A program made the position numbers and the translations under genes. The notes beneath the pieces are model-generated. The model made no database searches, was not told the origin of the DNA, and saw only the letters and a program-made list of their open reading frames with translations. From the NCBI GenBank assembly GCA_045586685.1, contig JAZNAU010000045.1:1-48449 (forward strand): DNA of 48,449 nucleotides, in the 5' to 3' direction. The stretch comes from Clostridia bacterium (GTDB taxonomy: Bacteria; Bacillota; Clostridia; HGM11514). Below, piece after piece: positions 1,811 to 28,979 of the stretch (position 1 is its first letter; every line of letters starts with the position of its first letter).

Positions 1811-2126
1811 GTACTTTTAGATATTTTTTCCATTATATAGATGTTTTGAACTTGTTTTATAAAATCATTTGTAATAAAGGTTTTTGTTTTATTTTTGGGT
1901 ATCTTCTTCTGGTGGATATCCCCGAAGAAGGAAAAAACCAACACTTTTATATATTTGCTTATTAATTTTTCTAAAAAACAATGCTTTTTAATGGACAGAA
2001 TCAATAAAAAATTGCGGTCGGAAAAACTTCCGCATTTTTCCGACACTTATAAATGACACCTATATAATAAATGATAAAAATTGCAAAAAGTATTTGTATT
2101 ATTGTCAAATCGACATTTATAACAGT

Positions 2127-2339
2127 TTTTATAAAAGAACGGACATCTTTTATAAAATATTGACAACTATTTATAAAAGGGTAGGACAGAAATTATAAAA
2201 TAATCAAGCAACTTTTATAAAATGTCGGTATTAGTTTTATAAAAGAGTAGGGATTTTTTTAATCGGTTTTATAAAAAAGAAAAGAGATTTTATAAAACTT
2301 TTGACAGATTTTATAAAACCTCTAATACTGTTTATAATG
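2127..2339. repeat. Phased array of ten TTTTATAAAA-type palindromes
   Basis: Central TATA at 2130, 2151, 2172, 2194, 2216, 2238, 2270, 2291, 2312 and 2333 (spacings 21,21,22,22,22,32,21,21,21). Confidence 0.9.
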
Positions 2340-2436: not shown

Positions 2437-3375
2437 TCAAGTTATAGGTAACAATGCACACAAAGATTTTGCAAAAAGCAATGCTCCTTTCTTTGCTTCC
2501 TCCATGGAGTTTCCGCTGGCGGCAACCTCTACAATCAGCATACCCGGTGCCAGATGTTGGTTAAACCTCTCCTTTCTTATATTAAGCGGTCGGGACAAGC
2601 CGGGAGCGTTTGAGTCCATTGCCTGTTGTAATTGTAATGCAAAAGCCAAATTGGTTTTCCAGTCAGGATGATTTAATCCTCCCTCATCGGTTCCTGCAAC
2701 CAGCATAATCTGTCCGGTCTCCGTTCCGTTTATGTCCGCCACAACCTGTAAACTTTGCCCATTCTCCAAGGTTGCCGCATCCCGATGAACATCCAACACA
2801 ATTTGCACAGTGGGATGTTTCTTTAACTGACGTTCTACCGTTTCCAGACAACGGGAATAGGAGCCGTTATAATCCGTATCGTGCACAGTCTTATCATGAA
2901 TGACCTTAATTCCTTGTTTTTCCAGACAGGAAGCGATTATCTCACCGATTGCAGTAACATTTTTTTTCGGGTCTGTGGACCTTTCCTCCGGTGCATAGCC
3001 CTCTGAAGTATGGGTATGTACAATTAAAACCTGAGGAGTTTTTCCTTTTACAGGCAAAAAGGAAAGATTCTGACTAAGCAATGCATCTGTATCAATATCA
3101 AAAGAAGTCTGATTCCGAAGAGCCGGTTTATATGCTTCTGCCGTTGCGGGTACGGTTTCGGGAACTACAGGAGAACTCGGCTTTTTTTGTTCCATAGCAA
3201 AAATGATGTTACTCATTTTCAGTAGATTATCAGACCATTTTGTTTCTTCCTCTGCAAGAAACACACGATTTAATATTTCTTTTGTTTGCTCTGTGGATAA
3301 TTCAAAATCAATTCCTTGAAACATCCATATTATTGTAATTCCTGCTATTAGACAAAAATACGTTATCTTTTTCAT
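2437..3375 (-). CDS. spoIIP: Stage II sporulation protein P (amidase/endopeptidase)
   Basis: VLIVHTHTSEGY, LDVHRDA, RFNQHL and LIVEV motifs; N-terminal TM segment. Confidence 0.93.
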   Translation of the reverse strand: MKKITYFCLIAGITIIWMFQGIDFELSTEQTKEILNRVFLAEEETKWSDNLLKMSNIIFAMEQKKPSSPVVPETVPATAEAYKPALRNQTSFDIDTDALLSQNLSFLPVKGKTPQVLIVHTHTSEGYAPEERSTDPKKNVTAIGEIIASCLEKQGIKVIHDKTVHDTDYNGSYSRCLETVERQLKKHPTVQIVLDVHRDAATLENGQSLQVVADINGTETGQIMLVAGTDEGGLNHPDWKTNLAFALQLQQAMDSNAPGLSRPLNIRKERFNQHLAPGMLIVEVAASGNSMEEAKKGALLFAKSLCALLPIT

Positions 3376-14176: not shown

Positions 14177-14683
14177 CTATACTACAATCCAAAATCTCCA
14201 AGGACGTTCTCGGTCCTTTTTGTCTGCATAATCAATTCCAATACGGGGACCTGATTGATAGGAAGGAGTTGCACCGTCGTCCTCCAACCAAAACCGAGGG
14301 GAATTGCATAAATCCTCCCCGTTCCACTCTTTGGTAATGCCCATCGCTTTGGTGGTTCTGCCCGGTCCCGCAAATTGCTCTATCCCCCGAATCAATACAG
14401 CTTGGGGATAGTCTTTTTCCCCTGCAACAATATTCAGTAAATGGTGCATCCCGTAACACAGGTAAATATAGGCATATCCACCCTCTCGGTACATCATTTC
14501 TGTCCGAAGGGTTTTCCCTTTGTGAGCATGACAAGCGGTGTCATCCTCCCCTTGATAACATTCTGTTTCTGTTATTCTGTATCGAAAAACATCCGTCCCC
14601 TTCTGTATGCAAATCAATTTCCCGAGCAAAGCAGGAGCAAGGATTTGGGCCGACTGTAAATAAAATTTCTTTGGTAATCTCAT
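14177..14683 (-). CDS. mpg: 3-methyladenine DNA glycosylase (AAG/MPG family)
   Basis: LLGK, ITETECY, YIYLCYGMHHLLNIV, AVLIRG, GPG, GPRIGI, PWRF. Confidence 0.93.
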   Translation of the reverse strand: MRLPKKFYLQSAQILAPALLGKLICIQKGTDVFRYRITETECYQGEDDTACHAHKGKTLRTEMMYREGGYAYIYLCYGMHHLLNIVAGEKDYPQAVLIRGIEQFAGPGRTTKAMGITKEWNGEDLCNSPRFWLEDDGATPSYQSGPRIGIDYADKKDRERPWRFWIVV

Positions 14684-14693
14684 CTTCTTTTCC

Positions 14694-15887
14694 TCAAGAT
14701 TGAAGTTGGTGATAAAGGTCCGGAAAGGGTTCTAAGCTTCTGGATAAAATCCCTTTCATGTAAGCAATGGCAATTCCGTAGTTGGTAATAGGAATTTGTT
14801 CTTCCTTTGCAGACCTTTGACGGCATTTCATCTCCCTGGGGTTGAGCATACAGCCTCCGCAATGAATAATCATTTTGTAAGGAGATAACTCCTCGGGAAA
14901 TTCTGTTCCCGAGGTAAACACAAATTCTGGTTCCGCTTTTGTGTATTCCCGAATCCACCGAGGCAGCTTAACGGTTCCGATATCTTCGCATTGACGGTGG
15001 TGAGTACAGCCTTCTGCAATCAAAATTTTATCTCCGTCTTTGACAGAATCCAAGGCTTTTACCCCCTGAACCGTAAGTTCTAAATCCCCTTTTTGCCTTG
15101 CCATTAAAATAGAAAATGAGGTTAAGGGTATGTCCCTATTTGTAATTTTTGCGACAACCTCAAACACCTGACTGTCTGTAATCACCATTTTAGGGGGGGT
15201 TTTACATTGAAATAAAATATCTTGTAACATGGTTTCTTTCACCACTAATGCAACAGCATCTGCATCCAGTAAAGCACGGATGGTTTGTTGCTGAGGGAGA
15301 ATCAACCTTCCTTTGGGAGCTGCGGAGTCAATGGGGGTGACTAAAATGACAGTATCTCCGGCATTGACCAAGCCTTGTACGAGAGAGGGAGATTCTACGG
15401 GTTTAGCAAGTTTGGAAATTTCTTCTTTTAATGCGTCAATCCCCTCCCCTGTTACTGCACTGACAGCCAGCTCCCCTTGTGGTGCCTGTGCAAGATCGGT
15501 TTTATTATAGACTGTTAGAAAAGGTACTTGACTTTGGCGAAACCGCTCTATCCAGTCTTTTTCAGCCTCAGAAATACCCTTTGTGGCATCAATCACTAAA
15601 ACGGCAATATCTGTTTTATTCAAAACCTGTTTGGTTTTTTTAACACGAAGTGCCCCCAGCTCACCCTGATTATCATCCATTCCTGCAGTGTCAATCATCA
15701 TTACAGGTCCTAAAGGAAGAAGCTCCATTGCTTTATAAACGGGGTCGGTAGTAGTGCCGCCAACGTCAGAAACCAATGAAATCTGTTGAGAAGTGACTGC
15801 ATTCATGACGCTGGATTTTCCTGCATTTCTTTTACCGAAAAAAGCAATATGCACCCGATTGGCGGATGCGGTATCCTGTAATCCCAT
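14694..15887 (-). CDS. hydF: [FeFe]-hydrogenase maturation GTPase
   Basis: GKRNAGKSS, GTTTDPV, DTAG, NKTD, GRLILPQ, EGCTHH and HCGGCM. Confidence 0.97.
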   Translation of the reverse strand: MGLQDTASANRVHIAFFGKRNAGKSSVMNAVTSQQISLVSDVGGTTTDPVYKAMELLPLGPVMMIDTAGMDDNQGELGALRVKKTKQVLNKTDIAVLVIDATKGISEAEKDWIERFRQSQVPFLTVYNKTDLAQAPQGELAVSAVTGEGIDALKEEISKLAKPVESPSLVQGLVNAGDTVILVTPIDSAAPKGRLILPQQQTIRALLDADAVALVVKETMLQDILFQCKTPPKMVITDSQVFEVVAKITNRDIPLTSFSILMARQKGDLELTVQGVKALDSVKDGDKILIAEGCTHHRQCEDIGTVKLPRWIREYTKAEPEFVFTSGTEFPEELSPYKMIIHCGGCMLNPREMKCRQRSAKEEQIPITNYGIAIAYMKGILSRSLEPFPDLYHQLQS

Positions 15888-15899
15888 AGCAAATCCTCC

Positions 15900-17321
15900 T
15901 TATAAACGAAAATCTCGCTTTCCTTCGTCGATGGCTTTCAATTTTTCTTTTACCAAGTCCTTTACTTTAGGATTGGGAACACGTTGAATTTCTCTGTCAA
16001 TCAATTCATATCCGATTTTTTTAGTAGGCTCGGAGGCGTAATCCTCCAGATATTCTTTTAAGGTCATCAAAGCGTTGGGGTGACAGCAATTTAGAATCTG
16101 ACCATTTTTACAAAGAGTCATAAACCGGTCTCCTGTCCGACCTTCCCGATAGCAAGCGGTACAGAAAGAGGGAATGTCTCCCTGTTCCATCAGCCAACGA
16201 ACGACTTCATCCAAAGTACGATTATCGCTCACATCAAACTGAGCAGAATTTTCTTCTTCCGGCTCTTCTTCAGCATAACCCCCAACACTTGTGCGGGAAG
16301 CACCGCTGATTTGAGAAATTCCCAAATGAAGCACCCGTTCCCGACATTCTTTGGATTCGCGGGTGGAGATAATCATGCCTGTGTAGGGAACTGCTATACG
16401 GATACAAGCAATCAATTTTGCAAAAATATCATCACTGATTCCATTGTCAAAAACATCCGGATCTATATCGTCTGCTCGTTTGATACGGGGAACACTAATT
16501 GTATGGGGACCAACCCCGAATGTGCTTTCCAGATGTTCTGCATGCATTAAAAGTGCGGCAAATTCGTATCGGTAAAGCTCAAGCCCGAACAGTACGCCTA
16601 ATCCCACATCATCAATCCCGCCTTCCATAGCTCGGTCCATAGCCTCGGTATGGTAAGCGTAATTGTGCTTGGGTCCTGTAGGATGAAGCTTTTCGTAGCT
16701 TTCCTTGTGATAGGTTTCCTGAAACAGAATATAAGTGCCTATGCCTGCCTCTTTCAGTTTGCGATAATTTTCTACCGTTGTGGCAGCAATGTTTACGTTT
16801 ACTCTGCGAATGGCACCGTTTTTGTGCTGAATGCTGTAAATGGTTTTAATACTTTCCAAAATATATTCTATGGGGTTATTGACCGGATCCTCTCCCGATT
16901 CAATGGCAAGACGCTTATGTCCCATATCCTGCAGAGCAATGACTTCTTTTTTTATTTCTTCCTGAGTCAGCTTTTTTCTGGCAATATGTTTGTTCTTTGC
17001 ATGATAGGGGCAATAAACACAACCGTTTACACAGTAATTGGACAGATAAAGAGGAGCAAACATGACAATACGGTTGCCGTAAAAGTCCTGTTTAATTTTG
17101 GCAGCCAGTGCTTCAATTTCCTTATTTTTTTCCGGTATATCGCAGTCCAGCAAAACAGCGGCCTCTCTGTGGGAAAGTCCCTTGTATTCCCTTGCTTTGT
17201 TTAAGATTTCATCAATAAGGGCGGCATTATGCTTGTTTTCTTCTGCAAAAGCCAGAGTGTCCAGCACCTCCTGATGGTCTATAAATTCTTCTGCCTTTTT
17301 TGATTTTGGATTATATGCCAT
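15900..17321 (-). CDS. hydG: [FeFe]-hydrogenase maturation radical SAM protein
   Basis: YLSNYCVNGCVYC and C-terminal CX2CX22C (FCTAC...NCC); start moved to ATG 17321 (MAYNPK, SD AAAGGA). Confidence 0.96.
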   Translation of the reverse strand: MAYNPKSKKAEEFIDHQEVLDTLAFAEENKHNAALIDEILNKAREYKGLSHREAAVLLDCDIPEKNKEIEALAAKIKQDFYGNRIVMFAPLYLSNYCVNGCVYCPYHAKNKHIARKKLTQEEIKKEVIALQDMGHKRLAIESGEDPVNNPIEYILESIKTIYSIQHKNGAIRRVNVNIAATTVENYRKLKEAGIGTYILFQETYHKESYEKLHPTGPKHNYAYHTEAMDRAMEGGIDDVGLGVLFGLELYRYEFAALLMHAEHLESTFGVGPHTISVPRIKRADDIDPDVFDNGISDDIFAKLIACIRIAVPYTGMIISTRESKECRERVLHLGISQISGASRTSVGGYAEEEPEEENSAQFDVSDNRTLDEVVRWLMEQGDIPSFCTACYREGRTGDRFMTLCKNGQILNCCHPNALMTLKEYLEDYASEPTKKIGYELIDREIQRVPNPKVKDLVKEKLKAIDEGKRDFRL

Positions 17322-17328
17322 GGTAATT

Positions 17329-17586
17329 TCATCCTTTCTGTAAAGTTTTAGAGTAAGCAGCTTTTGCACTGACTCCCCTTAATTTTCCGATTTTGCCCGA
17401 GAGAGCACTGATTTCTTCCGTTGTGCCGTCAACTGCAATACTGATAATAGAAATTTCTTTTTCCCGATAGGGCAGTCCCATTCGTCCGATAATAATAGAG
17501 CTATATTCATGAAGGATATGATTTAACTGGGTTACAGATTCAGATTCTTCTACAATAATACCGATGATTGCCACACGTTTTTCCAT
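17329..17586 (-). CDS. TM1266-family putative iron-only hydrogenase system regulator (ACT-like)
   Basis: RVAIIGIIVE...LN.ILHEY...IIGRMGLPY...ISALSGKIG.L.GV..K; adjacent to hydG. Confidence 0.9.
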   Translation of the reverse strand: MEKRVAIIGIIVEESESVTQLNHILHEYSSIIIGRMGLPYREKEISIISIAVDGTTEEISALSGKIGKLRGVSAKAAYSKTLQKG

Positions 17587-17601
17587 TTTGGTCTTCCTTT
17601 C

Positions 17602-17631
17602 AAAAAAATATGCACCCTCTCAGAGGGTGCA
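17602..17631 (-). terminator. Intrinsic terminator within the 5' leader (attenuator)
   Basis: TGCACCCTCT-G-AGAGGGTGCA then TATTTTTTT, between the promoter and the first start codon. Confidence 0.75.
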
Positions 17632-17730
17632 AAAAACACAAAAGTTCCTGTTTTCTTTCGCCTCAGAGAAGTCTTTAGCGTCAGTAAAGTTGAATCGTTC
17701 GGCAAGGAAAATCCCGACCGTCAGATCATA
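17632..17730 (-). ncRNA. Candidate cis-regulatory leader RNA of the hydrogenase maturation operon
   Basis: Two tandem CUGA-[C...G stem-loop]-AA modules upstream of the leader terminator. Confidence 0.55.
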
Positions 17731-17735
17731 TTTTT

Positions 17736-17764
17736 ATTATAAATCATTGTAAGTGTTTTGTCAA
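17736..17764 (-). promoter_or_regulatory. Consensus SigA promoter of the hyd operon
   Basis: TTGACA-17-TATAAT. Confidence 0.85.
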
Positions 17765-17801: not shown

Positions 17802-17831
17802 TTGACAAAACAAAGGGGAATGTGCTATAAT
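17802..17831 (+). promoter_or_regulatory. SigA promoter
   Basis: TTGACA-18-TATAAT with extended TG. Confidence 0.75.
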
Positions 17832-17853: not shown

Positions 17854-18336
17854 GTGTTTTTGATGAAACCAAAAAAATTGGTATTGTCTTCTGTATTGAC
17901 TGCTTTGGTATGTGTAGGAACTATGGTGATTAAAATTCCTACAATAAATGGATATATCCATCCCGGGGACGGATTTGTGCTCTTGGCGGGATTTTTATTG
18001 GGACCGTCTTGGGGTGCAGCAGCGGCGGGAATTGGTTCCGCTCTGGCAGATTTGTTTGCCGGATATTCGGTGTATGCTCCGGGAACACTTTTTATAAAAG
18101 GATTGACCGCTCTTGTTTGTGGGTTAATCTATAAAAGAAAACAGACCATATCCTTTGCATTACTGAGTGGTATTGTGGCTGAATTGGTTATGACAGCAGG
18201 CTATTTTCTATATGAAACTCTTGTGTTTGGAGACGGTGCACTGGCGGCGATTCCGGGAAATTTAGTACAAGGCATGGGGGGTGTCGTTATATCGCTATTG
18301 CTGTTGCCATTGCTAAAGCGAGCAATAAAATTCTGA
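17854..18336 (+). CDS. ECF transporter S component
   Basis: GYIHPGDG...G...G...GIGSALADL..GY..YAPGT..IKG motif; hydrophobic; the real start is probably 17860-17863. Confidence 0.9.
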   Translation: MFLMKPKKLVLSSVLTALVCVGTMVIKIPTINGYIHPGDGFVLLAGFLLGPSWGAAAAGIGSALADLFAGYSVYAPGTLFIKGLTALVCGLIYKRKQTISFALLSGIVAELVMTAGYFLYETLVFGDGALAAIPGNLVQGMGGVVISLLLLPLLKRAIKF

Positions 18337-21329: not shown

Positions 21330-22571
21330 ATGGTTCAATTTTATACCTTGTCTAACGGTTTGCGAATAGGCGCAGAAAATATTCCCCATGTAAAGTCTGT
21401 CGCTGCCGGTTTTTTTATCCGTGCGGGCGGAATGACGGAGGAAAGCCGGGAAAACGGAATTTCTCATTTTGTGGAACATATGCTGTTTAAAGGAACAAAA
21501 AAGAGAAATGCCTGTCAGATTGTTCAGGAAATTGACCGGACGGGAGGCGTGCTTAACGCGTTTACTTCGGATGAATATACCTGCTATTATGTAAAAACCT
21601 TGGACAGACAGTTGGAAACTGCCATTGATGTGTTATGTGATATGTTGTTTCAATCCAAGCTTGCTCCTGAGGATATTGAACTGGAAAAGCGGGTGATTGG
21701 AGAGGAAATCAGTCTTTACGAAGATTCTCCTGAAGAATTGGCAGGAGATATTCTTTCCAGACAAAGCTGGGGGGACTGTCCCGCAGGAAGACCTATTTTG
21801 GGCACTGCAGATAGGGTTCGCCTCTATACCCGAGAAGATTTGGTTTCTTATATGGAACGGTTTTATCATCCTGAAAATATGGTATTTTCCATTGCAGGAA
21901 GCTTTGATTTATCCCAAGTAATAGGACTTTTGGAAAAAAGAATGGGTAAGTTTGGCTCATGGACTTCTGATGTTCCTGATTTTCCTCTTACCTTTCATGC
22001 CGGTGCTTCCTATAAAGAAAAGGATGCAGAGCAGACCCAAATCGCTTTGGGGTTTGAAGGAATCTCCAGAAAAGATGAAGATTTATACCCTTTATTGGCG
22101 GTTAATACTCTGTTTGGCGGCGGAATGAGCTCTCGATTATTTCAAAACATAAGAGAGAAACGAGGGTTGGCTTATTCTATAGGGTCGTACCCTCTTTGTT
22201 ATACAAAATCCGGTATGCTTGTGGTCAGTGCAGGAGTTAGTCCTGAAAATGCAGAGGAAACGGTAGCACTACTCTTACAGGAAATGAACCATTTTTGCGA
22301 AAACGGAATTTCCAACGAAGAGCTTTCTGCATGCAAGGACCAACTGGCGGGAGGATACTTGTTAGGCTTGGAATCCACCTCCTCCCGAATGAGTCATTTA
22401 GGAAAAGGGTTATTATTGGAAGGAACGGTCAGAACTCAGGAAGAGGTATTGAGTTTGATTGACCATGTATCGCAAGAGGATACGGCACGGGTGATTGACC
22501 GAGTGTTCACACCTGACCGTTTCAGTCTGGCCGCAGCCGGAGCCATTTCTCAATGGATAAAAAATTTGTAA
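21330..22571 (+). CDS. M16 (pitrilysin-family) zinc peptidase
   Basis: GISHFVEHMLFKGT, NAFTS, SSRLFQ.IREKRGLAYS; ATG 21330 after GGAGG. Confidence 0.95.
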   Translation: MVQFYTLSNGLRIGAENIPHVKSVAAGFFIRAGGMTEESRENGISHFVEHMLFKGTKKRNACQIVQEIDRTGGVLNAFTSDEYTCYYVKTLDRQLETAIDVLCDMLFQSKLAPEDIELEKRVIGEEISLYEDSPEELAGDILSRQSWGDCPAGRPILGTADRVRLYTREDLVSYMERFYHPENMVFSIAGSFDLSQVIGLLEKRMGKFGSWTSDVPDFPLTFHAGASYKEKDAEQTQIALGFEGISRKDEDLYPLLAVNTLFGGGMSSRLFQNIREKRGLAYSIGSYPLCYTKSGMLVVSAGVSPENAEETVALLLQEMNHFCENGISNEELSACKDQLAGGYLLGLESTSSRMSHLGKGLLLEGTVRTQEEVLSLIDHVSQEDTARVIDRVFTPDRFSLAAAGAISQWIKNL

Positions 22572-22582
22572 GGAACAGAAAA

Positions 22583-24919
22583 ATGAAAAAGTACAAGGTG
22601 CATATTTCCATTTATATTGCTTTTTTTGCCGTCTGGGTTTTGATGACTCGGGGGGCTGTTTCTCCTTTGATTTATCCTGATGAGGCGGGATACATTGGCT
22701 GGGCAAGAGAGCTTGCGGGACGTATAAGCGAAACTTGGCGCTATCTGCCAGGCTTTGGCCTTTTGCTTTCCCCCATTTTTTGGTTTACCAATGATGTATT
22801 ACAGGCATATCCTGTAATCATCCTTATCAATTGCCTGATGGGAGCGGCAATTCCTGTGCTCCTTTACAGTAATTCAGGCAATTTTTTGGACGAAAAAAAT
22901 AGATTGCTGGCAATCGTTACAATCGGTTTCTATCCGGCTTGGCTTCTTTATGGTAACCTGGCTTTATCAGAGGTTTTTTTGACATTTTTGTACACGCTTT
23001 TACTGTGGTCGGTTTGTCATTGGGGTAAAAACAAATGGTCTTGGCTCGTATCCTTTCTGTGCTGTATCTGGATGATAGCCAGCCACGGTCGAGGGGGCGC
23101 GGCAATTCTTGGTGTACTAGCGGCATTTGGCAGTTATGCATGGGACAAGCCGTGGCGGAAAAAAGCATTGATTTCCTGTGGCGTTGTGCTGATTTTGGCG
23201 ATTGTTACGGGAATTTTGTACCTGTTTGGGACAGAATCGGTGAATGGTGCTCACCTTCGGGAACAACTTATGGGATTGTTCTCTTTTAATGGCTTATGGA
23301 ACACCTTCTCCACCCTTCTTTCCCAAAGCTATTATCTTATGCTGTCTACCTTTGGGGTAGCGGCATTGGGAATATGGCAGGGAATGACTGTTCTCAAAAA
23401 GAAAAACAGTCCTGTTGTTTGGTTTATATTGATTGCTTTTCTGTTTTCTGCCCTACTTTCTGCGGTGTTCATGAATCATCATGAAAAACCGGACCATATT
23501 CTTTATGGACGGTATAATGAATTTGTATTAGGCGGAATTTTACTGTTGGGTATGACTGAATTTTTAAAGAAACGAAACTACATGTGGGTGCTTGTTCTGT
23601 TTGTCTTATTAGCCACATTTACAGGGCTTCGCTACAGTGAGGATTTGGTTGGAATCGACAGTAATCTGTGCCATACATGGGGTTTGTATTCTTATAAGAT
23701 ATTATTCAGTCGTTTTACCTTCGTTGGTGTGGCGGTTTGGTTTGGATTATGGAGCGGGATAATGTGGTTGATTCGTCGGTATAATCCTCATTCTGCTGCT
23801 TTGTTTTTATGCGGTTTGTTTTTGGTAACGTCTCTTTATACCAAATATGATTATTTTGTGAAGGGAGCATATCCTCGATACCAATCCTCTCAGATTGCAA
23901 ATTTTGTTGAAGATAAAGTTTCTGCTAAATTCTTAGAAGGAGATACAATGGGCTATCCTTGGGGAGTGTATCATCTGCTCACCTTAAAGCCGGAATTACA
24001 GCTTTTGGAGGATGCAAACTTACTGTTAACAACGAAAAAGGAAGGAAACATTCTGGGCAGCGAAACCTATGATACCCTATACCTTTGCCAAAAAGATGGA
24101 GAAAACCAACCTCTTTCCGGAGAAATCTTTGTTACGGGTTGGAACAAAAACAGTCTGACCCTTTCTGTAGTAAATACGGGAGGCCCATGGCTTTGCTATA
24201 ATGGCGCGGAATACTTGGAGGATTGCGTCAGACTGGTGATTTGGGTTTCCTCTGACGGAGCAGAAGAACAGTTTCGCGTAGATTTGCCCCGGAATTTGTA
24301 CCAGGGAGAAACGATGGAAACAGAAATTCCTCTTACATTAAAGGACGGAATATCCCGTGTGCAAATCAGTCCTTGTGTTGATTTGTCCCAAATCATAGCT
24401 TCGGTATGTGTTGAAGTGTCGGTAGAAAAGGGAAACATTGTAACGTGCGAAGCTGCACAACCTGAACAAAAACAATTTACTTTGCTGAACGCGGAAGACT
24501 ATCCCCGTCAAACCGAAGGAATGTTCCGAGGGTACAGTACGGGAGAAACTGTATTTGATCATCTTGGCTGGGACATTTCCGGAGAAAACTTGATTTTGTA
24601 CTCTAAAGGACAGGCAAACAACGTATCTGTATCTGTAAACGGTCAGGTGCTTTCGTTAGAAAAAAGGGGAGGAAACTCCTATTGCTTTTCTCTTAATAGA
24701 ATTACAGAAATTGACCGAATTACCGTAACAAGTGATACAACTGTTCCTGCAAAAATGGCGGGAGTGCCCGGGATTTTTGGATTTTTAAGAGCGGATTCAC
24801 CTTGCAAACCGATTTCTCTGTTTGTACGCGGAATGGATAAATTATTTGGACTCCGTTGGGATTTTTGTTCCTACGGAATTTGGATTGACCGTATTACCAT
24901 TGAGGAGAATCTGCAATAA
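22583..24919 (+). CDS. Polytopic membrane protein, GT-C-like glycosyltransferase with C-terminal external domain (paralog 1)
   Basis: PLIYPDEAGY in the first loop, LSE motif, many TM helices, HILYGRY; probable start ATG 22583. Confidence 0.65.
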   Translation: MKKYKVHISIYIAFFAVWVLMTRGAVSPLIYPDEAGYIGWARELAGRISETWRYLPGFGLLLSPIFWFTNDVLQAYPVIILINCLMGAAIPVLLYSNSGNFLDEKNRLLAIVTIGFYPAWLLYGNLALSEVFLTFLYTLLLWSVCHWGKNKWSWLVSFLCCIWMIASHGRGGAAILGVLAAFGSYAWDKPWRKKALISCGVVLILAIVTGILYLFGTESVNGAHLREQLMGLFSFNGLWNTFSTLLSQSYYLMLSTFGVAALGIWQGMTVLKKKNSPVVWFILIAFLFSALLSAVFMNHHEKPDHILYGRYNEFVLGGILLLGMTEFLKKRNYMWVLVLFVLLATFTGLRYSEDLVGIDSNLCHTWGLYSYKILFSRFTFVGVAVWFGLWSGIMWLIRRYNPHSAALFLCGLFLVTSLYTKYDYFVKGAYPRYQSSQIANFVEDKVSAKFLEGDTMGYPWGVYHLLTLKPELQLLEDANLLLTTKKEGNILGSETYDTLYLCQKDGENQPLSGEIFVTGWNKNSLTLSVVNTGGPWLCYNGAEYLEDCVRLVIWVSSDGAEEQFRVDLPRNLYQGETMETEIPLTLKDGISRVQISPCVDLSQIIASVCVEVSVEKGNIVTCEAAQPEQKQFTLLNAEDYPRQTEGMFRGYSTGETVFDHLGWDISGENLILYSKGQANNVSVSVNGQVLSLEKRGGNSYCFSLNRITEIDRITVTSDTTVPAKMAGVPGIFGFLRADSPCKPISLFVRGMDKLFGLRWDFCSYGIWIDRITIEENLQ

Positions 24920-24934
24920 GGAGGAAAACGAAAA

Positions 24935-27394
24935 ATGGAAAAAGGAATGAAAACGGAACGAAAAGTAAAATGGTTATTATTTTTTTCGTTTTTGTTGTTT
25001 TTGGGATGGTTGAGCAAAGATGCATCTGTACCGCTGATTTATCCTGATGAGGCAGGCTATATTGGTTGGGCAAAAATAATAGCCGGAAAATCCGGCGATC
25101 CCTTACACTATTCTCCGGGTTACAGCTTATTGCTTGCTCCGATTTTTTTGTTTACGGAGGACATTCTGCAAGCATATCCTGTCATTATTAAGATCAACGT
25201 GATGATAGGGGCACTCATTCCTGTTTTGCTGTATCACCTGAGCGGATATTTTTGCAATGAAAAGGATGTATTGAAAAGAGCGGGGATTGCAGTTCTTGCA
25301 TCTCTTTATCCTACTGTCACCTCTTATGTACAACTGGCACTTTCTGAAACCTGGCTTACTGTTTTGTTATTAGGAGTTGCGGTTTGTTTTTGTTCTCTGT
25401 GGGAGAATAGAAATCAGTTAAAAATTTGGGGATTATTACTTGTTTTATGTATTTGGAGCGTTCTCACTCATGCCCGAGGACTGGCCATAGGGATTGGTGC
25501 TCTGCTAACGGCTGTGGTTTTGTTTCGGGACAAAAAGAAGGAACTAATCATAGGCGGTTTGATAGGAATCTTGATGATTGGAGGTACTGCTGCGGTGTTG
25601 CTGTCTGATCAGGACCATATAGGAGCCTGTCACGTCCTCAATCAAATAAAACACTTTTTTTCTATTCAAGGAATCAGCTCGTTTGTGACAACATTGATTT
25701 CTCATTTTTGTTATTTAATTTGGTCGACTTTTGGAATGATTTCCATTGCTATATATCGCGGAGTAACGGCCATTCGCAAACAGGAAAAAGGCTGGGGGCT
25801 TTGGGTTTTTATTCTAAGCAGTTTTTGTTTCATGTGGTGTCTTTCCGCATTTTATATGAGCCATCACGAAAGGGCTGTTCATATTTTATACGGACGCTAT
25901 ATTGATGTAGTGATTCCGCTGATACTGCTGGCTCTGTTTTCCGGTTGGGGAAAGGTTCGGATTCCATGGTGGATATGGATCATTTCTTTGGGATGCGTCA
26001 TTGTTACCGGATTGTTGTACAGCAATGCAACTCTTGGGTTGGATGGCGGAATTATGAATGCGGTTGGGATGTTTTTATACCGAATATGGTTGCATCATTT
26101 TGAGTTTTGGTGGGCAGCAATATTCTTTGCTCTGATGACGGGAATTGTTTTTTTTATAGGATTGCGACATCCCAGTCTGTGCCTTGTTGCACTGGGAACA
26201 CTGTTTCTTTTTCAGGTAGGATATATACAGAACTCTTATTTTGAAAGGGAAGCTTCTGTAAAAAGACAAGTGCCACAAGTGATTGCAAGATTGCCGGAAA
26301 ATGCAGAGGTATATGTATCTGATTTAGAAGGAGTGTTGCAATATACCTGGCAATACTATAACTATCCCTTATATCGTCCTGATTTGAAGTTAAGCACCGA
26401 GGACACCGGTCAGCCTTTTGTACTGAGCCGAACGTTACAAGAGTACGGCACTTTAATCGCGATGGAAAAGGAAAATCCGGTTTATTTGTATCAAAGAGAT
26501 AGTCAGGTACAGGGTTTACAATATCCTGATGAATTAGAGGAATACAATGTTTCTTATTTTTGGAGACAGGTGTCGGACGGCATAGAGGTAACGGTACAAA
26601 ATCATGGCTCGCCCTGGCTGTGCTTCAATGCTGTACGGGATTTAAGGAATACGGTACGGTTAGGCGTACGGTGTTTTGATTACGAACAAAATCTGATATC
26701 TGATCAACGATATGACTTTTTTAATAATTTATACCAAGGAGATCAGGAACAATTTCTTCTTTCTGTTCCTTCCCAGTGCTCATTGTTAGAGATTCAACCG
26801 GTGTTGGAATTTACTGCTTGGTTTTCTGAACGGGGCTGTGAGCCTCTGTGGCTAAGCAGACAAGGAGACGAGTGGAAAATTACGGAAGAACCTAAACCGG
26901 ATTATAATCATGATTTCCGAAAAATAGAATTTTCTCATTTGCGATATGTAGAGGAAATGGAGAATACTACTTATCAAAATACTATCGTAAATTTTTATTC
27001 CAACTATACAAAAGCAGAATCAAAAATTAAAAATATTAGAATGCCGTCAGGGGACTGGTTGATACTGCATACAGGAGAATCGGAACAAAGAGAAGTGAAG
27101 ATATCCGTTAATGACCGTGCTCCTATTCGGCCGGAACGGTATGAGGACGGAGCTTATTATATCCCATTAGAGGATACGACTACAACGATTACTTCCATTG
27201 GAATAAGCTCGGATACGGTAAATCCCTTTGATGAAAGCGGATTGCCCGATAATCTTTCTTTCTTGTCTTTAGACACCAATGTAAAACCCATTCAATTTGC
27301 AGTGCACAGAATGGAGGATATTATGGGCAGAGAAGTGAATAATCATGAATTTGGAATACGAATTGAAAAAATAGAGGTCAGAAGGGAGGAATAA
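24935..27394 (+). CDS. Polytopic membrane protein, GT-C-like glycosyltransferase with C-terminal external domain (paralog 2)
   Basis: Shares PLIYPDEAGYIGWA, LALSE, HxRG, HHE..HILYGRY, PWLC.N and NLYQG with the upstream gene. Confidence 0.65.
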   Translation: MEKGMKTERKVKWLLFFSFLLFLGWLSKDASVPLIYPDEAGYIGWAKIIAGKSGDPLHYSPGYSLLLAPIFLFTEDILQAYPVIIKINVMIGALIPVLLYHLSGYFCNEKDVLKRAGIAVLASLYPTVTSYVQLALSETWLTVLLLGVAVCFCSLWENRNQLKIWGLLLVLCIWSVLTHARGLAIGIGALLTAVVLFRDKKKELIIGGLIGILMIGGTAAVLLSDQDHIGACHVLNQIKHFFSIQGISSFVTTLISHFCYLIWSTFGMISIAIYRGVTAIRKQEKGWGLWVFILSSFCFMWCLSAFYMSHHERAVHILYGRYIDVVIPLILLALFSGWGKVRIPWWIWIISLGCVIVTGLLYSNATLGLDGGIMNAVGMFLYRIWLHHFEFWWAAIFFALMTGIVFFIGLRHPSLCLVALGTLFLFQVGYIQNSYFEREASVKRQVPQVIARLPENAEVYVSDLEGVLQYTWQYYNYPLYRPDLKLSTEDTGQPFVLSRTLQEYGTLIAMEKENPVYLYQRDSQVQGLQYPDELEEYNVSYFWRQVSDGIEVTVQNHGSPWLCFNAVRDLRNTVRLGVRCFDYEQNLISDQRYDFFNNLYQGDQEQFLLSVPSQCSLLEIQPVLEFTAWFSERGCEPLWLSRQGDEWKITEEPKPDYNHDFRKIEFSHLRYVEEMENTTYQNTIVNFYSNYTKAESKIKNIRMPSGDWLILHTGESEQREVKISVNDRAPIRPERYEDGAYYIPLEDTTTTITSIGISSDTVNPFDESGLPDNLSFLSLDTNVKPIQFAVHRMEDIMGREVNNHEFGIRIEKIEVRREE

Positions 27395-27395
27395 G

Positions 27396-28979
27396 ATGCA
27401 TTTTCAGATTCCCAAGCAACAACGGACGAAAATAGAAGAATATTTGCAAAAGTTGCCTCAAGAGGAGACAAAAGGCGTGCAAAAATCCGACTATCTTGAC
27501 TTGGCTGAGCAACTTTTGGAAAAGTATGAAATAACCAAAGCCGTTGACCCCGAAAAGGAATTTCAAGTTTGTTCCCAACTGGTATGGATATGGGCGGTGC
27601 TTCTTTCCAACGGAAGAAAAAAAGAACTTTACACTTCGTTTTGCGAATTGATGACGAAGGTCTGCAAAATAATATCAATGGATAACGGTGCTTCGTTGCC
27701 AAAGTTTTTGGTGGCAAAAGTGCTTCTTGCCCTTTCCTTAATGAAGGAGAATGACACAAATGGGGACTGGTCTGAAATAGCAAGTTCTATAGATCAAACA
27801 GATGCAGAGAATGTGCAGTGTGATGAAAATGGAATGTATGCTTATTGCGGTTCATCCGATTCCTGGTCAGGAACAGAGGATATTACCCTCCGCTTTCGCC
27901 TTCAGCTAATGGAAGCTGCGGGTATTATTTCCGCCGAGGAGGGACTGCGCCGAGGGGGAGTGTGGTCTCTGATGACCCAATCAGCAACCGGCCGTCTGCC
28001 TTACGGAGGGTTAAAAAAACCGTTGCATCACCAAGCCTTGTTGGTATCTGTTTTAGAGTATGAAGCAGGCAAACAGGTGGAGGAAGGAAATTTTGTACTG
28101 GCGGGAAGAATGCGTCGGGGAGCAAGGCTGGCCTTAGAATCCCTCCGTAAGGAAATTACGGATATTACTGGTGGTTATAAAGAAATAGAGAATCAAGGTG
28201 TTCTTATTTCTGCAACAGCATTGTGCGGTGCAGCAATTTTTGCACACGAGGATTTACCCGAGCATCCTGCTCCTTGTGAAAATGGCGGCTATGTACTTTT
28301 TACAACGCCAAAATTTCATCACATTTTTGCCAATGTATGGGGTTACAGCATCCAGATTGATGCGAATGGCGAATCGGATTGGGATACAACAGGATTGGGA
28401 AGAATTCATAAAAAAGGAATTCCTGAAAAACTGGGGCTGTCTGTTCCTTTTTCAGCACACCTTCATGATGCTCTGCCTCAAGGTTTCAAACCCATTTCCG
28501 CTTCTATTGGTATTGGATGGGATGACGGAGAGGGAGGTATTCAATACCTTTCTGATTTAACAGGAATCAAATATGCATTATCCATTGAGGAAGAAAAGAA
28601 GGATAAACTAAAGTTTACAATTACCTATACAGGAAATTGCCTGAAAAATTGCGGTGGTATTATGGAAACCTATTCTCTGGACGAGGGAGGTTTGAGGTAC
28701 AGTGCCAAATTACTGGAATCGGAGTGCAAGGCGGTGTACGCCCGAGTGCCTTTATTTGTAACGGATGGAGAGCGAGAAAGTAACATCAAGCAAAAAGCGG
28801 GACAAACCAATGTGTATTTTGATCAGTTTCGGTGGAAAATCACCACCAATGCCTCTTGGTCGCCTGATGAAACAATGGCAGAAAATCAAAACGGAGTCTA
28901 TAAAATTGTCACATTGGTTCGTCTGGAACCAAAAATCAGATTCAATTTGTCATTATGTCAGGAAAATGAGAGGGAATAA
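27396..28979 (+). CDS. Hypothetical soluble protein (helical N-half, beta-rich C-half)
   Basis: 527-aa ORF coupled to the upstream stop, GGAGG SD; no catalytic motif recognised. Confidence 0.75.
   Translation: MHFQIPKQQRTKIEEYLQKLPQEETKGVQKSDYLDLAEQLLEKYEITKAVDPEKEFQVCSQLVWIWAVLLSNGRKKELYTSFCELMTKVCKIISMDNGASLPKFLVAKVLLALSLMKENDTNGDWSEIASSIDQTDAENVQCDENGMYAYCGSSDSWSGTEDITLRFRLQLMEAAGIISAEEGLRRGGVWSLMTQSATGRLPYGGLKKPLHHQALLVSVLEYEAGKQVEEGNFVLAGRMRRGARLALESLRKEITDITGGYKEIENQGVLISATALCGAAIFAHEDLPEHPAPCENGGYVLFTTPKFHHIFANVWGYSIQIDANGESDWDTTGLGRIHKKGIPEKLGLSVPFSAHLHDALPQGFKPISASIGIGWDDGEGGIQYLSDLTGIKYALSIEEEKKDKLKFTITYTGNCLKNCGGIMETYSLDEGGLRYSAKLLESECKAVYARVPLFVTDGERESNIKQKAGQTNVYFDQFRWKITTNASWSPDETMAENQNGVYKIVTLVRLEPKIRFNLSLCQENERE

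Follow-up and report, generated by a model that had tools for sequence, protein, structure and literature searches.

A putative regulatory leader RNA lies at the head of a hydrogenase-maturation operon in a Clostridia bacterium (assembly GCA_045586685.1). The DNA analyzed, which we refer to as "the window", is the whole 48,449-nt stretch of contig JAZNAU010000045.1 (positions 1–48,449). On its minus strand, a promoter, a leader and an intrinsic terminator are followed by a TM1266-family gene, hydG and hydF, in that order (Table 1). A sequence-only reading had described a consensus SigA promoter and a leader of ~140 nt ending in a strong terminator just before the Shine–Dalgarno (SD) sequence of the TM1266-family gene, and this description is accurate. 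Transcription probably starts near position 17729, judging from the promoter spacing, which would give a leader of ~143 nt. The terminator consists of a 9-bp stem with six G-C pairs (~−15 kcal/mol for the hairpin) and a T run. A promoter followed by a leader that ends in a G+C-rich hairpin and a U run before the first gene is the arrangement of an attenuator. The first gene encodes an 85-amino-acid protein that scores above the curated cutoff for its family and has hydG and hydF downstream. The true hydG start is likely the ATG at 17321, 7 nt past the TM1266 stop codon; the TIGR03955 profile begins at residue 19 of the hydG open reading frame (ORF). Neither hydE nor hydrogenase genes were found in the window. 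Here, we describe a conserved, covarying hairpin in this leader and weigh the possibility that it is the core of a transcription attenuator.

Table 1. Features of the TM1266 leader and operon in the window (MFE, minimum free energy; R1–R3, motif models described in the text; L001 and L002, related loci).
Feature	Position	Strand	Parts	Evidence
Sigma-70-type promoter, TTGACA-17-TATAAT	17764..17736	−	−35 hexamer 17764-17759; 17-nt spacer; −10 hexamer 17741-17736	12/12 consensus matches
Module 1, degenerate upstream copy	17693..17727 (core 17724-17696)	−	CUGA 17724-17721; 4-bp helix 17720-17717 with 17703-17700; inner 3-bp helix 17714-17712 with 17708-17706; outer helix 17727-17724 with 17696-17693	Sequence, fold, R2 in register
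Module 2, canonical motif	17651..17687 (core 17684-17655)	−	CUGA 17684-17681; P1 17680-17677 with 17662-17659; internal loop AA 17676-75 opposite GA 17664-63; P2 17674-17672 with 17667-17665; loop 17671-17668; AAAG 17658-17655	R1, R2, R3 scores; covariation
Hairpin H3	17631..17656	−	A-rich 5' arm 17656-17649; U-rich 3' arm 17638-17631	MFE folds
Candidate antiterminator	17620..17667	−	Module 2 3' half 17667-17661 with 17626-17620, enclosing H3	MFE of truncated transcript
Intrinsic terminator	17601..17631	−	Stem 17631-17623 with 17619-17611; loop 17622-17620; U run 17610-17601	
Ribosome-binding site and ATG of TM1266-family gene	17600-17593; 17586-17584	−		Invariant in window, L001, L002
TM1266-family gene, 85 amino acids	17329..17586	−		TIGR03959 117.6 bits (cutoff 60.8); PF21699 114 bits
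hydG, radical-SAM H-cluster maturase	15900..17369	−		TIGR03955 945 bits
hydF, H-cluster maturation GTPase	14694..15887	−		TIGR03918 552 bits

To place the leader in a comparative context, the window TM1266 protein was aligned with 35 homologues, and the alignment was used to fetch loci from one-genome-per-species contigs. There were 600 pattern matches, 593 of them relatives; the best 80 of at least 593 were used, with 2.5-kb flanks (loci L001, L002, etc.). All model searches covered the window and these 80 loci, i.e., 422,739 nt on both strands. The leader contains two modules that had been noted as similar, and the second of these, module 2, recurs widely in the upstream regions of the fetched loci. 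A seed alignment of 31 instances was made with MAFFT and its structure written by hand. In this alignment, 91.3% of cells are paired, as compared with at most 52% when the partners are slid; six of nine pairs change on both sides, and none of 500 shuffles reaches the score. RNAalifold gives the same helices unaided. In the alignment of 65 model matches (E <= 1), 93.0% of cells are paired versus at most 46.6% when slid, with 115 double-change cells; a single P1 pair occurs as CG 25 times, GC 12 times and UA nine times. This second alignment was fitted to the model and is biased toward pairing, but the unfitted MAFFT seed agrees with it. The covariation that the sequence-only reading had called for is thus present: a conserved, covarying, aptamer-like element lies upstream of what resembles an expression platform.

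The first model, R1, gave 63 matches at E <= 10, of which 62 are on the TM1266 strand. A refined model, R3, gave 60 matches at E <= 0.055, all of them intergenic and all on the TM1266 strand. Read 5' to 3', the motif consists of CUGA, a helix P1 of 3–4 bp, a two-purine loop, a 3-bp helix P2, a terminal loop of 2–13 nt without conserved positions, GA, the P1 return strand and (G/A)AAG. Across the 60 R3 matches, the C and U of CUGA and the final AAG, which follows a purine, are invariant (60/60 each); the G and A of CUGA are present in 57 and 59, and the next base is C in 56. The 5' side of the internal loop is a purine followed by A (59/60), and the 3' side is G (49/60) followed by A (54/60). 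The P1 return strand covaries with P1, which is reduced to ~2 bp in one Acutalibacteraceae-type lineage. A short outer helix can form between the CU of CUGA and the AG of AAAG, so that the whole folds as an irregular hairpin interrupted by two symmetric 2×2 purine-purine internal loops of the tandem G.A type, ~4 bp apart. In upstream copies of the motif, variants exist in which the U-A pair of the CU/AG helix is swapped for C-G or U-G.

Within the window, the leader fold is more stable than 199 of 200 shuffles (z = −2.93). The two modules proposed earlier are both present, but not as equal copies: module 2 is canonical, whereas module 1 is degenerate. Module 2 scores 42.9 bits with R1, having itself been among the R1 seeds, and 42.5 bits with R3. 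An independent model, R2, was built from 14 upstream copies of other loci, none of them from the window clade and none of them main copies, and it nevertheless finds module 2 with 27.0 bits (E = 0.0013 over 423 kb, both strands). Rows from the window clade, which fell out of register under MAFFT, were left out of the R2 alignment (A5) and placed by the model instead. The A5 rows are matches or near-matches to a pattern that requires pairing, so their 98.4% pairing is biased and was not used as structural evidence. R2 also finds several copies near hydG (see below) and the upstream copies of L019 (21.7 bits) and L002 (21.3 bits). Because R2 recovers the motif in all three settings, we consider the leader, upstream and hydG-proximal copies to be one motif.

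In module 1, the 3' flank is AACG rather than AAAG, and the inner loops are not purine loops. It is syntenic with the upstream copy of L002 and almost identical to it. We accept module 1 as a copy of the motif because of this synteny and because tandem copies recur in other lineages. Indeed, when a strict pattern (flanks, P1 of 4 bp, P2 of 3 bp) is searched for, 13 of 50 leaders turn out to have an additional copy upstream, 12–60 nt (mostly 16–20 nt) ahead of the main one; 0.01 would be expected from shuffles, and only one of 572 coding-region windows contains such a match. Many other lineages have a single copy, such that the earlier proposal of tandem sites holds for a subset of leaders. Between module 2 and the terminator, the window folds into a further hairpin, H3, which takes the last two bases of the module 2 AAAG at its base and adjoins the terminator; both H3 arms are kept in L001 and L002. 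The window also mimics the motif flanks around the 3' arm of the terminator (17593-17626, minus strand), with CUGA in the terminator loop and AAAGG opening the SD region. This mimic scores only 3.6 bits with R1 (E = 0.5 in a 221-nt search) and may be due to chance, or the leader may have here a third, weak site masking the SD sequence.

TM1266-leader copies were found by R3 in 47 of the 80 loci and in the window, 55–313 nt from the start codon. Seven more loci have a divergent form by eye, which brings the count of related species-level genomes with the motif to at least 54 of 80; conservation of the CUGA/AA modules in orthologous leaders had been named as a check on the sequence-only reading. 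Two aspects of the distribution go beyond that reading: a further copy of the motif often overlaps the hydG ribosome-binding site, and the motif also occurs in operons of FecCD-type transporter genes. The gene that follows TM1266 is hydE in 42 of 80 loci (34 with an R3 match) and hydG in 12, plus the window. Genes for a FecCD-type ABC transporter follow in 10 loci, all 10 with a match, and hydF follows in six (once past a short ORF), none with a match. In L037, the TM1266 gene comes first, followed by the motif, then a terminator and then a gene for a FecCD-type permease. NifH/CfbC-like genes follow the TM1266-ABC transporter genes in L005 (4846-5250), L032 (4845-5255) and L062 (4845-5252), which suggests that a nitrogenase-like metallocluster system stands under the same leader motif. 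In L041, hydE (3009-3374) follows the TM1266-ABC transporter genes; some overlap thus exists between ABC-type operons and hydrogenase maturation.

Eleven hydG-proximal copies were found by R3. A sequence profile made from these finds copies in 22 of the 50 loci whose stretch includes the hydG start, ending 0–18 nt before the start codon (L009, L012, L015, L017, L021, L023, L029, L033, L038, L045, L046, L051, L054, L055, L058, L060, L063, L068, L072, L076, L077 and L078). Here, the hairpin runs into an extended hydG SD sequence, either inside the operon or at its head. A copy at this position would imply control at the level of translation that is specific to hydG. Because hydG starts only 7 nt past the TM1266 stop codon, the window lacks such a copy. 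In L040, the hydE-hydG spacer (~1890-1957) contains runs of N, and a hydG-proximal copy cannot be judged there.

The element appears to be new. At the gathering score, Rfam 15 found only tRNA in the window and, in 20 related loci, only a T-box leader in L012, which is unrelated to the motif (1936-2190, minus strand, 94.7 bits; located upstream of the TM1266 locus but on the other strand). At E <= 10, the leaders of the window, L054 and L018 gave only noise, the best score being 22 bits against a gathering score of 80. This agrees with the earlier remark that the leader does not fit the TPP, SAM-I, FMN, lysine, glycine, ZTP, c-di-GMP or T-box consensus. In the full-text literature, supplements excluded, we found no description of an RNA element for TM1266 or the hyd maturation genes, nor any report of a TM1266 target or mechanism. 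The word "hydrogenase" was counted zero times in the main texts of the large motif-discovery papers that the search listed, and the portions seen of PMC3543383 and PMC9481103 are not relevant to such an element. The sequence-only reading had suggested a possibly undescribed system, and the motif is best described as a new class of putative cis-regulatory RNA that would use a known kind of mechanism.

If the leader is an attenuator, an alternative pairing should sequester the 5' arm of the terminator and be incompatible with the sensor hairpin, and such a pairing is predicted across the family. A hairpin and T run lie downstream of all 50 leader matches, as called by an automated, uncurated script, a few of whose calls are weak. 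The duplex between the motif 3' flank and the 5' arm of its own terminator has a mean energy of −9.8 kcal/mol, a value reached by none of 2,000 permutations, as compared with −7.8 kcal/mol for cross-locus pairs. When transcripts are truncated before the terminator 3' arm, 42 of 50 leaders have five or more arm bases paired with the motif region, and the mean number of such bases is 7.3 versus 4.6 for shuffled sequences (Wilcoxon p = 1e-7). These predictions are consistent with the earlier proposal that the leader gates read-through into the operon. Since the 3' side of the motif is complementary to the terminator 5' arm, the design would be that of an anti-antiterminator, i.e., binding of an effector to the hairpin would lead to termination. 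We consider this direction of regulation, off upon binding, to be probable.

In the window, the evidence for an alternative pairing is weak. A direct antiterminator between the motif flank and the terminator was rejected for the window, L001 and L002 (−4.6, −3.5 and −3.1 kcal/mol, respectively). In the candidate that replaces it, the end of the terminator 5' arm and the terminator loop are paired with the 3' half of module 2; this helix appears in the MFE structure of the window transcript cut before the terminator 3' arm (−24.7 kcal/mol). The equivalent helix in L002 has 10 bp and is present even in the full-leader MFE structure; the MFE structure of L001 lacks it. Leader-peptide attenuation was dropped as an explanation, given that the window and L001 do not share the short ORFs that follow the motif, as judged by reading rather than by a formal test. 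In the leaders of the short-P1 lineage (L018, L035, L050, L052, L061, L066 and L074) and in L003, the terminator loop and 3' arm contain the complement of the motif CUGAC; L003 has CCGAC, with a matching change in its partner. This hints at a possible second competing pairing or a pseudoknot.

TM1266-family proteins had been described as ACT-like and lacking a DNA-binding domain, and this is borne out for the window protein by its family assignment (TIGR03959/PF21699), AlphaFold and Foldseek. The model (pLDDT 93.6) has an ACT/NikR-C-like fold without a DNA-binding domain, and the best Foldseek matches are 2NZC and the C-terminal domains of NikR, along with IlvN and an ACT domain of the RelA type. 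Among TM1266 relatives, only 2NZC has been solved, and it contains no RNA. A regulator gene in or next to the regulated operon, encoding a protein without a DNA-binding domain, is what would be expected for attenuation by a protein. TM1266-like domains also occur as parts of larger proteins. All five ABC ATPases scanned in the ABC-type loci have a C-terminal TM1266-like domain (PF21699; L047 3786-4871, L062 3788-4861, L071 1693-3069, L073 3761-4891 and L075 3462-4913; also P0125-P0136), and 18 longer homologues include eight ABC ATPases and one NifH-type protein with such a domain. On the ABC ATPases, it looks like a substrate-sensing regulatory domain, suggesting that the stand-alone TM1266 protein and the transporter sense the same ligand.

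Stand-alone and fused domains share a core (N22, L25, H26, G34-G37, P39, Y40 and K75), and D53 and Y28 are kept in eight and six of nine fused domains, respectively. Other residues are specific to the stand-alone form. R4, E13, G64 and G67 are invariant among 80 stand-alone proteins, and K65 is conserved at a frequency of 0.99; in the nine fused domains, these residues are kept in three (R4), none (E13), none (G64), one (G67) and four (K65). G64, K65 and G67 fall in a loop of the SGKIGK type. Such residues point to a possible extra function of the stand-alone form, the conserved RNA nearby being the obvious candidate for a partner.

Taken together, we propose, at somewhat below an even chance, that the leader is a transcription attenuator built around the conserved hairpin, with the TM1266 protein as its favored candidate effector. 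Without the effector, the 3' side of the motif would pair with the terminator 5' arm, and polymerase would read through into TM1266-hydG-hydF. The antiterminator strand would be the GAAAG flank plus ~10 nt in most lineages, and the 3' half of module 2 in the window clade. With the effector holding the hairpin and its flanks, the terminator would form, transcription would stop and expression would be off; where the hairpin adjoins the hydG SD sequence in other genomes, binding would block translation. The effector would be a TM1266-family protein acting as a ligand-sensing, oligomeric RNA-binding autoregulator like PyrR, HutP or TRAP, and the two modules of the window would engage two sites of one oligomer. 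The TM1266 protein is favored as the candidate autoregulator because of its stand-alone-specific residues, the motif in 10 of 10 ABC-type loci, the several sites per operon and the hutP-like arrangement of L037; that it binds the hairpin is about as plausible, in our view, as the attenuator proposal as a whole. A broader proposal, which we hold more tentatively, is that TM1266 represents a new class of ligand-sensing RNA-binding attenuation proteins, with an ACT/NikR-C fold and an SGKIGK-type loop, which would recognize the hairpin with its two purine-purine loops between CUGA and GAAAG. Acting at leader terminators and the hydG ribosome-binding site, they would tie the synthesis of H-cluster maturases and of a FecCD-type importer, whose ATPase has the same sensor domain, to one metabolite or metal.

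Several observations weigh against attenuation by TM1266. In the window, the antiterminator has only 6 bp and pairs five of nine arm bases, the flank-arm duplex reaches just −4.6 kcal/mol, and the full-length MFE structure contains module 2 and the terminator formed together. Module 1 is hardly detected by R1 (1.5 bits) or R2 (9.1 bits; E = 0.031 in a 221-nt search). Since TM1266 served to fetch every locus, the sampling itself biases the association between motif and protein. Of the 80 loci, 26 have no R3 match at E <= 0.06; ten of these carry divergent copies by eye, and the other 16 have nothing visible within 2.5 kb, including all six loci in which hydF follows TM1266. The window protein is not notably basic, its structural neighbors are metal- or amino-acid-binding domains, and none of the 18 longer homologues has a known nucleic-acid-binding domain fused to the TM1266-like domain. 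The fusions to ABC and NifH-type ATPases, together with these neighbors, indicate that the fold is a ligand sensor.

As an alternative, the hairpin, single or in tandem, could itself be a riboswitch aptamer for a small molecule or metal ion (e.g., Fe(II), cysteine, tyrosine or an H-cluster precursor), and TM1266 would then be no more than a co-regulated ligand-binding or chaperone protein. RNA and protein could sense the same ligand independently, since TM1266-like domains act as ligand sensors on ATPases. The covarying core, the invariant unpaired purines and the classic terminator/antiterminator platform are all features of riboswitches. So too are tandem copies in a subset of leaders, and tandem G.A loops can bind divalent metals; moreover, the operons concerned encode iron-demanding maturases or FecCD-type importers. 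We consider a riboswitch the main and a serious rival, though less probable than attenuation by TM1266. The element is very small, a hairpin of ~30 nt with a free-form 2–13-nt loop, few conserved positions and a P1 as short as ~2 bp in one lineage, and it matches no Rfam riboswitch. Its recurrence at the internal hydG ribosome-binding site would be unusual for a riboswitch but typical of protein regulons, and the shared polarity of the platform in importer and iron-consuming maturase operons would be awkward for a simple iron sensor.

Less probable still is that the motif serves another trans-acting factor (a different RNA-binding protein, an RNase, e.g., RNase Y, or the ribosome via the SD-like GAAAGG) or no effector at all, being a processing or stability element or a constitutive partial terminator. 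The 3' flank does resemble an SD sequence, and the hydG SD sequence of 22 loci begins with it; the leader copies are not functional SD sequences, because they lie too far from the start codon (55–313 nt). The 16 TM1266 loci without a nearby motif, and the coexistence of hairpin and terminator in the full-length fold of the window, would also fit this explanation. By contrast, the strict linkage to two kinds of TM1266 operon does not, and the complementarity of each motif to its own terminator arm, locus by locus, argues for a switch rather than a static element. As for the idea that the two modules resemble each other by chance and that the terminator accounts for all regulation by the leader, the poor scores of module 1 with R1 and R2 are in its favor, but it is already contradicted by the comparative data: the confinement of all 60 matches to the gene strand, the strong covariation, the recovery of module 2 by the independent model and the recurrence of the strict module-1 pattern well above expectation. 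We regard it as extremely improbable.

To our knowledge, the regulation of [FeFe]-hydrogenase maturation in bacteria is essentially unknown. The structure of TM1266 was released in 2006, and the protein has been labeled a "putative regulator" ever since. The motif supplies a concrete candidate RNA target for TM1266, conserved, covarying and with a predicted on/off logic, and the presence of the same domain on an ABC ATPase points to a shared ligand. If the proposal is true, it would bring to light a new fold among RNA-binding proteins or else a new class of riboswitch, as well as a point at which biological hydrogen production is controlled in gut and fermentative Clostridia.

The window has further features. 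An ECF-transporter S-component gene (17854-18336, plus strand; PF07155, TIGR04002-like) is transcribed from a divergent, perfect promoter (17802-17831, plus strand; TTGACA-18-TATAAT, extended by TG); the gene has a short 5' untranslated region without an Rfam match. Three large, adjacent ORFs of 788, 819 and 527 amino acids (22553-28976, plus strand) have no Pfam match at E <= 1e-12. A 3-methyladenine DNA glycosylase ORF (14177-14683, minus strand; 168 amino acids) matches profiles of 181–192 positions in two stretches and may be shortened.

The motif and its candidate protein resemble several known systems in part. Kink-turns (K-turns), the sites of L7Ae, likewise present tandem sheared G.A-type purine pairs beside C-G pairs as a recognition feature. 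A K-turn consists of a 3-nt bulge followed by tandem G.A pairs; the motif has two symmetric 2×2 purine loops per hairpin and no bulge, and we therefore rejected this assignment. ANTAR targets consist of two hairpins with hexaloops that have conserved A1 and G4, and were rejected because the loops here vary from 2 to 13 nt with no conserved positions. The TM1266 protein has the fold of the NikR C-terminal domain (Pfam NikR_C, E = 3e-5), with query-normalized Foldseek TM-scores of 0.73–0.85 for the listed NikR entries and 0.77–0.85 for isolated C-terminal-domain chains. Membership in the NikR family was rejected, as only the C-terminal-like domain matches and the 85-amino-acid protein has no N-terminal ribbon-helix-helix domain. 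Nor are the His and Cys nickel ligands of NikR among the invariant residues of TM1266.

Among RNA regulators, the glycine, guanidine-II (mini-ykkC) and NAD+-I riboswitches likewise combine two similar small modules in one leader with a terminator platform, and tandem or small-hairpin riboswitches share the conserved unpaired purines within covarying stems. The motif differs from these in having no Rfam match, a single module in most lineages and copies at internal ribosome-binding sites. HutP and TRAP are oligomeric, ligand-activated proteins that read repeated short RNA elements, much as proposed for TM1266. The leader and hydG-proximal copies have a counterpart in TRAP, which controls a leader terminator as well as ribosome-binding sites, and hutP precedes its regulated terminator as TM1266 does in L037 (cf. 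the hutP-hutH and pyrR-pyrP layouts). HutP and TRAP sites are single-stranded triplet repeats, however, rather than a covarying hairpin with purine loops, and HutP binding leads to antitermination, whereas the platform here predicts termination upon binding.

A further close parallel is with PyrR and the Bacillus pyr operon. PyrR has a phosphoribosyltransferase fold, unlike the ACT/NikR-C-like fold of TM1266; its binding site has another consensus, no PyrR match was found with Rfam here, and TM1266 is a candidate RNA-binding protein. In other respects, the two arrangements are similar. In both, the first gene encodes a small regulator without a DNA-binding domain, and a conserved hairpin stands as a known or predicted anti-antiterminator before an intrinsic terminator. 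Both also have more than one site in an operon; in this respect, the leader and hydG ribosome-binding-site copies resemble the regulons of both PyrR and TRAP. PyrR binding switches expression off with a small-molecule co-effector, and the same would be expected of TM1266.

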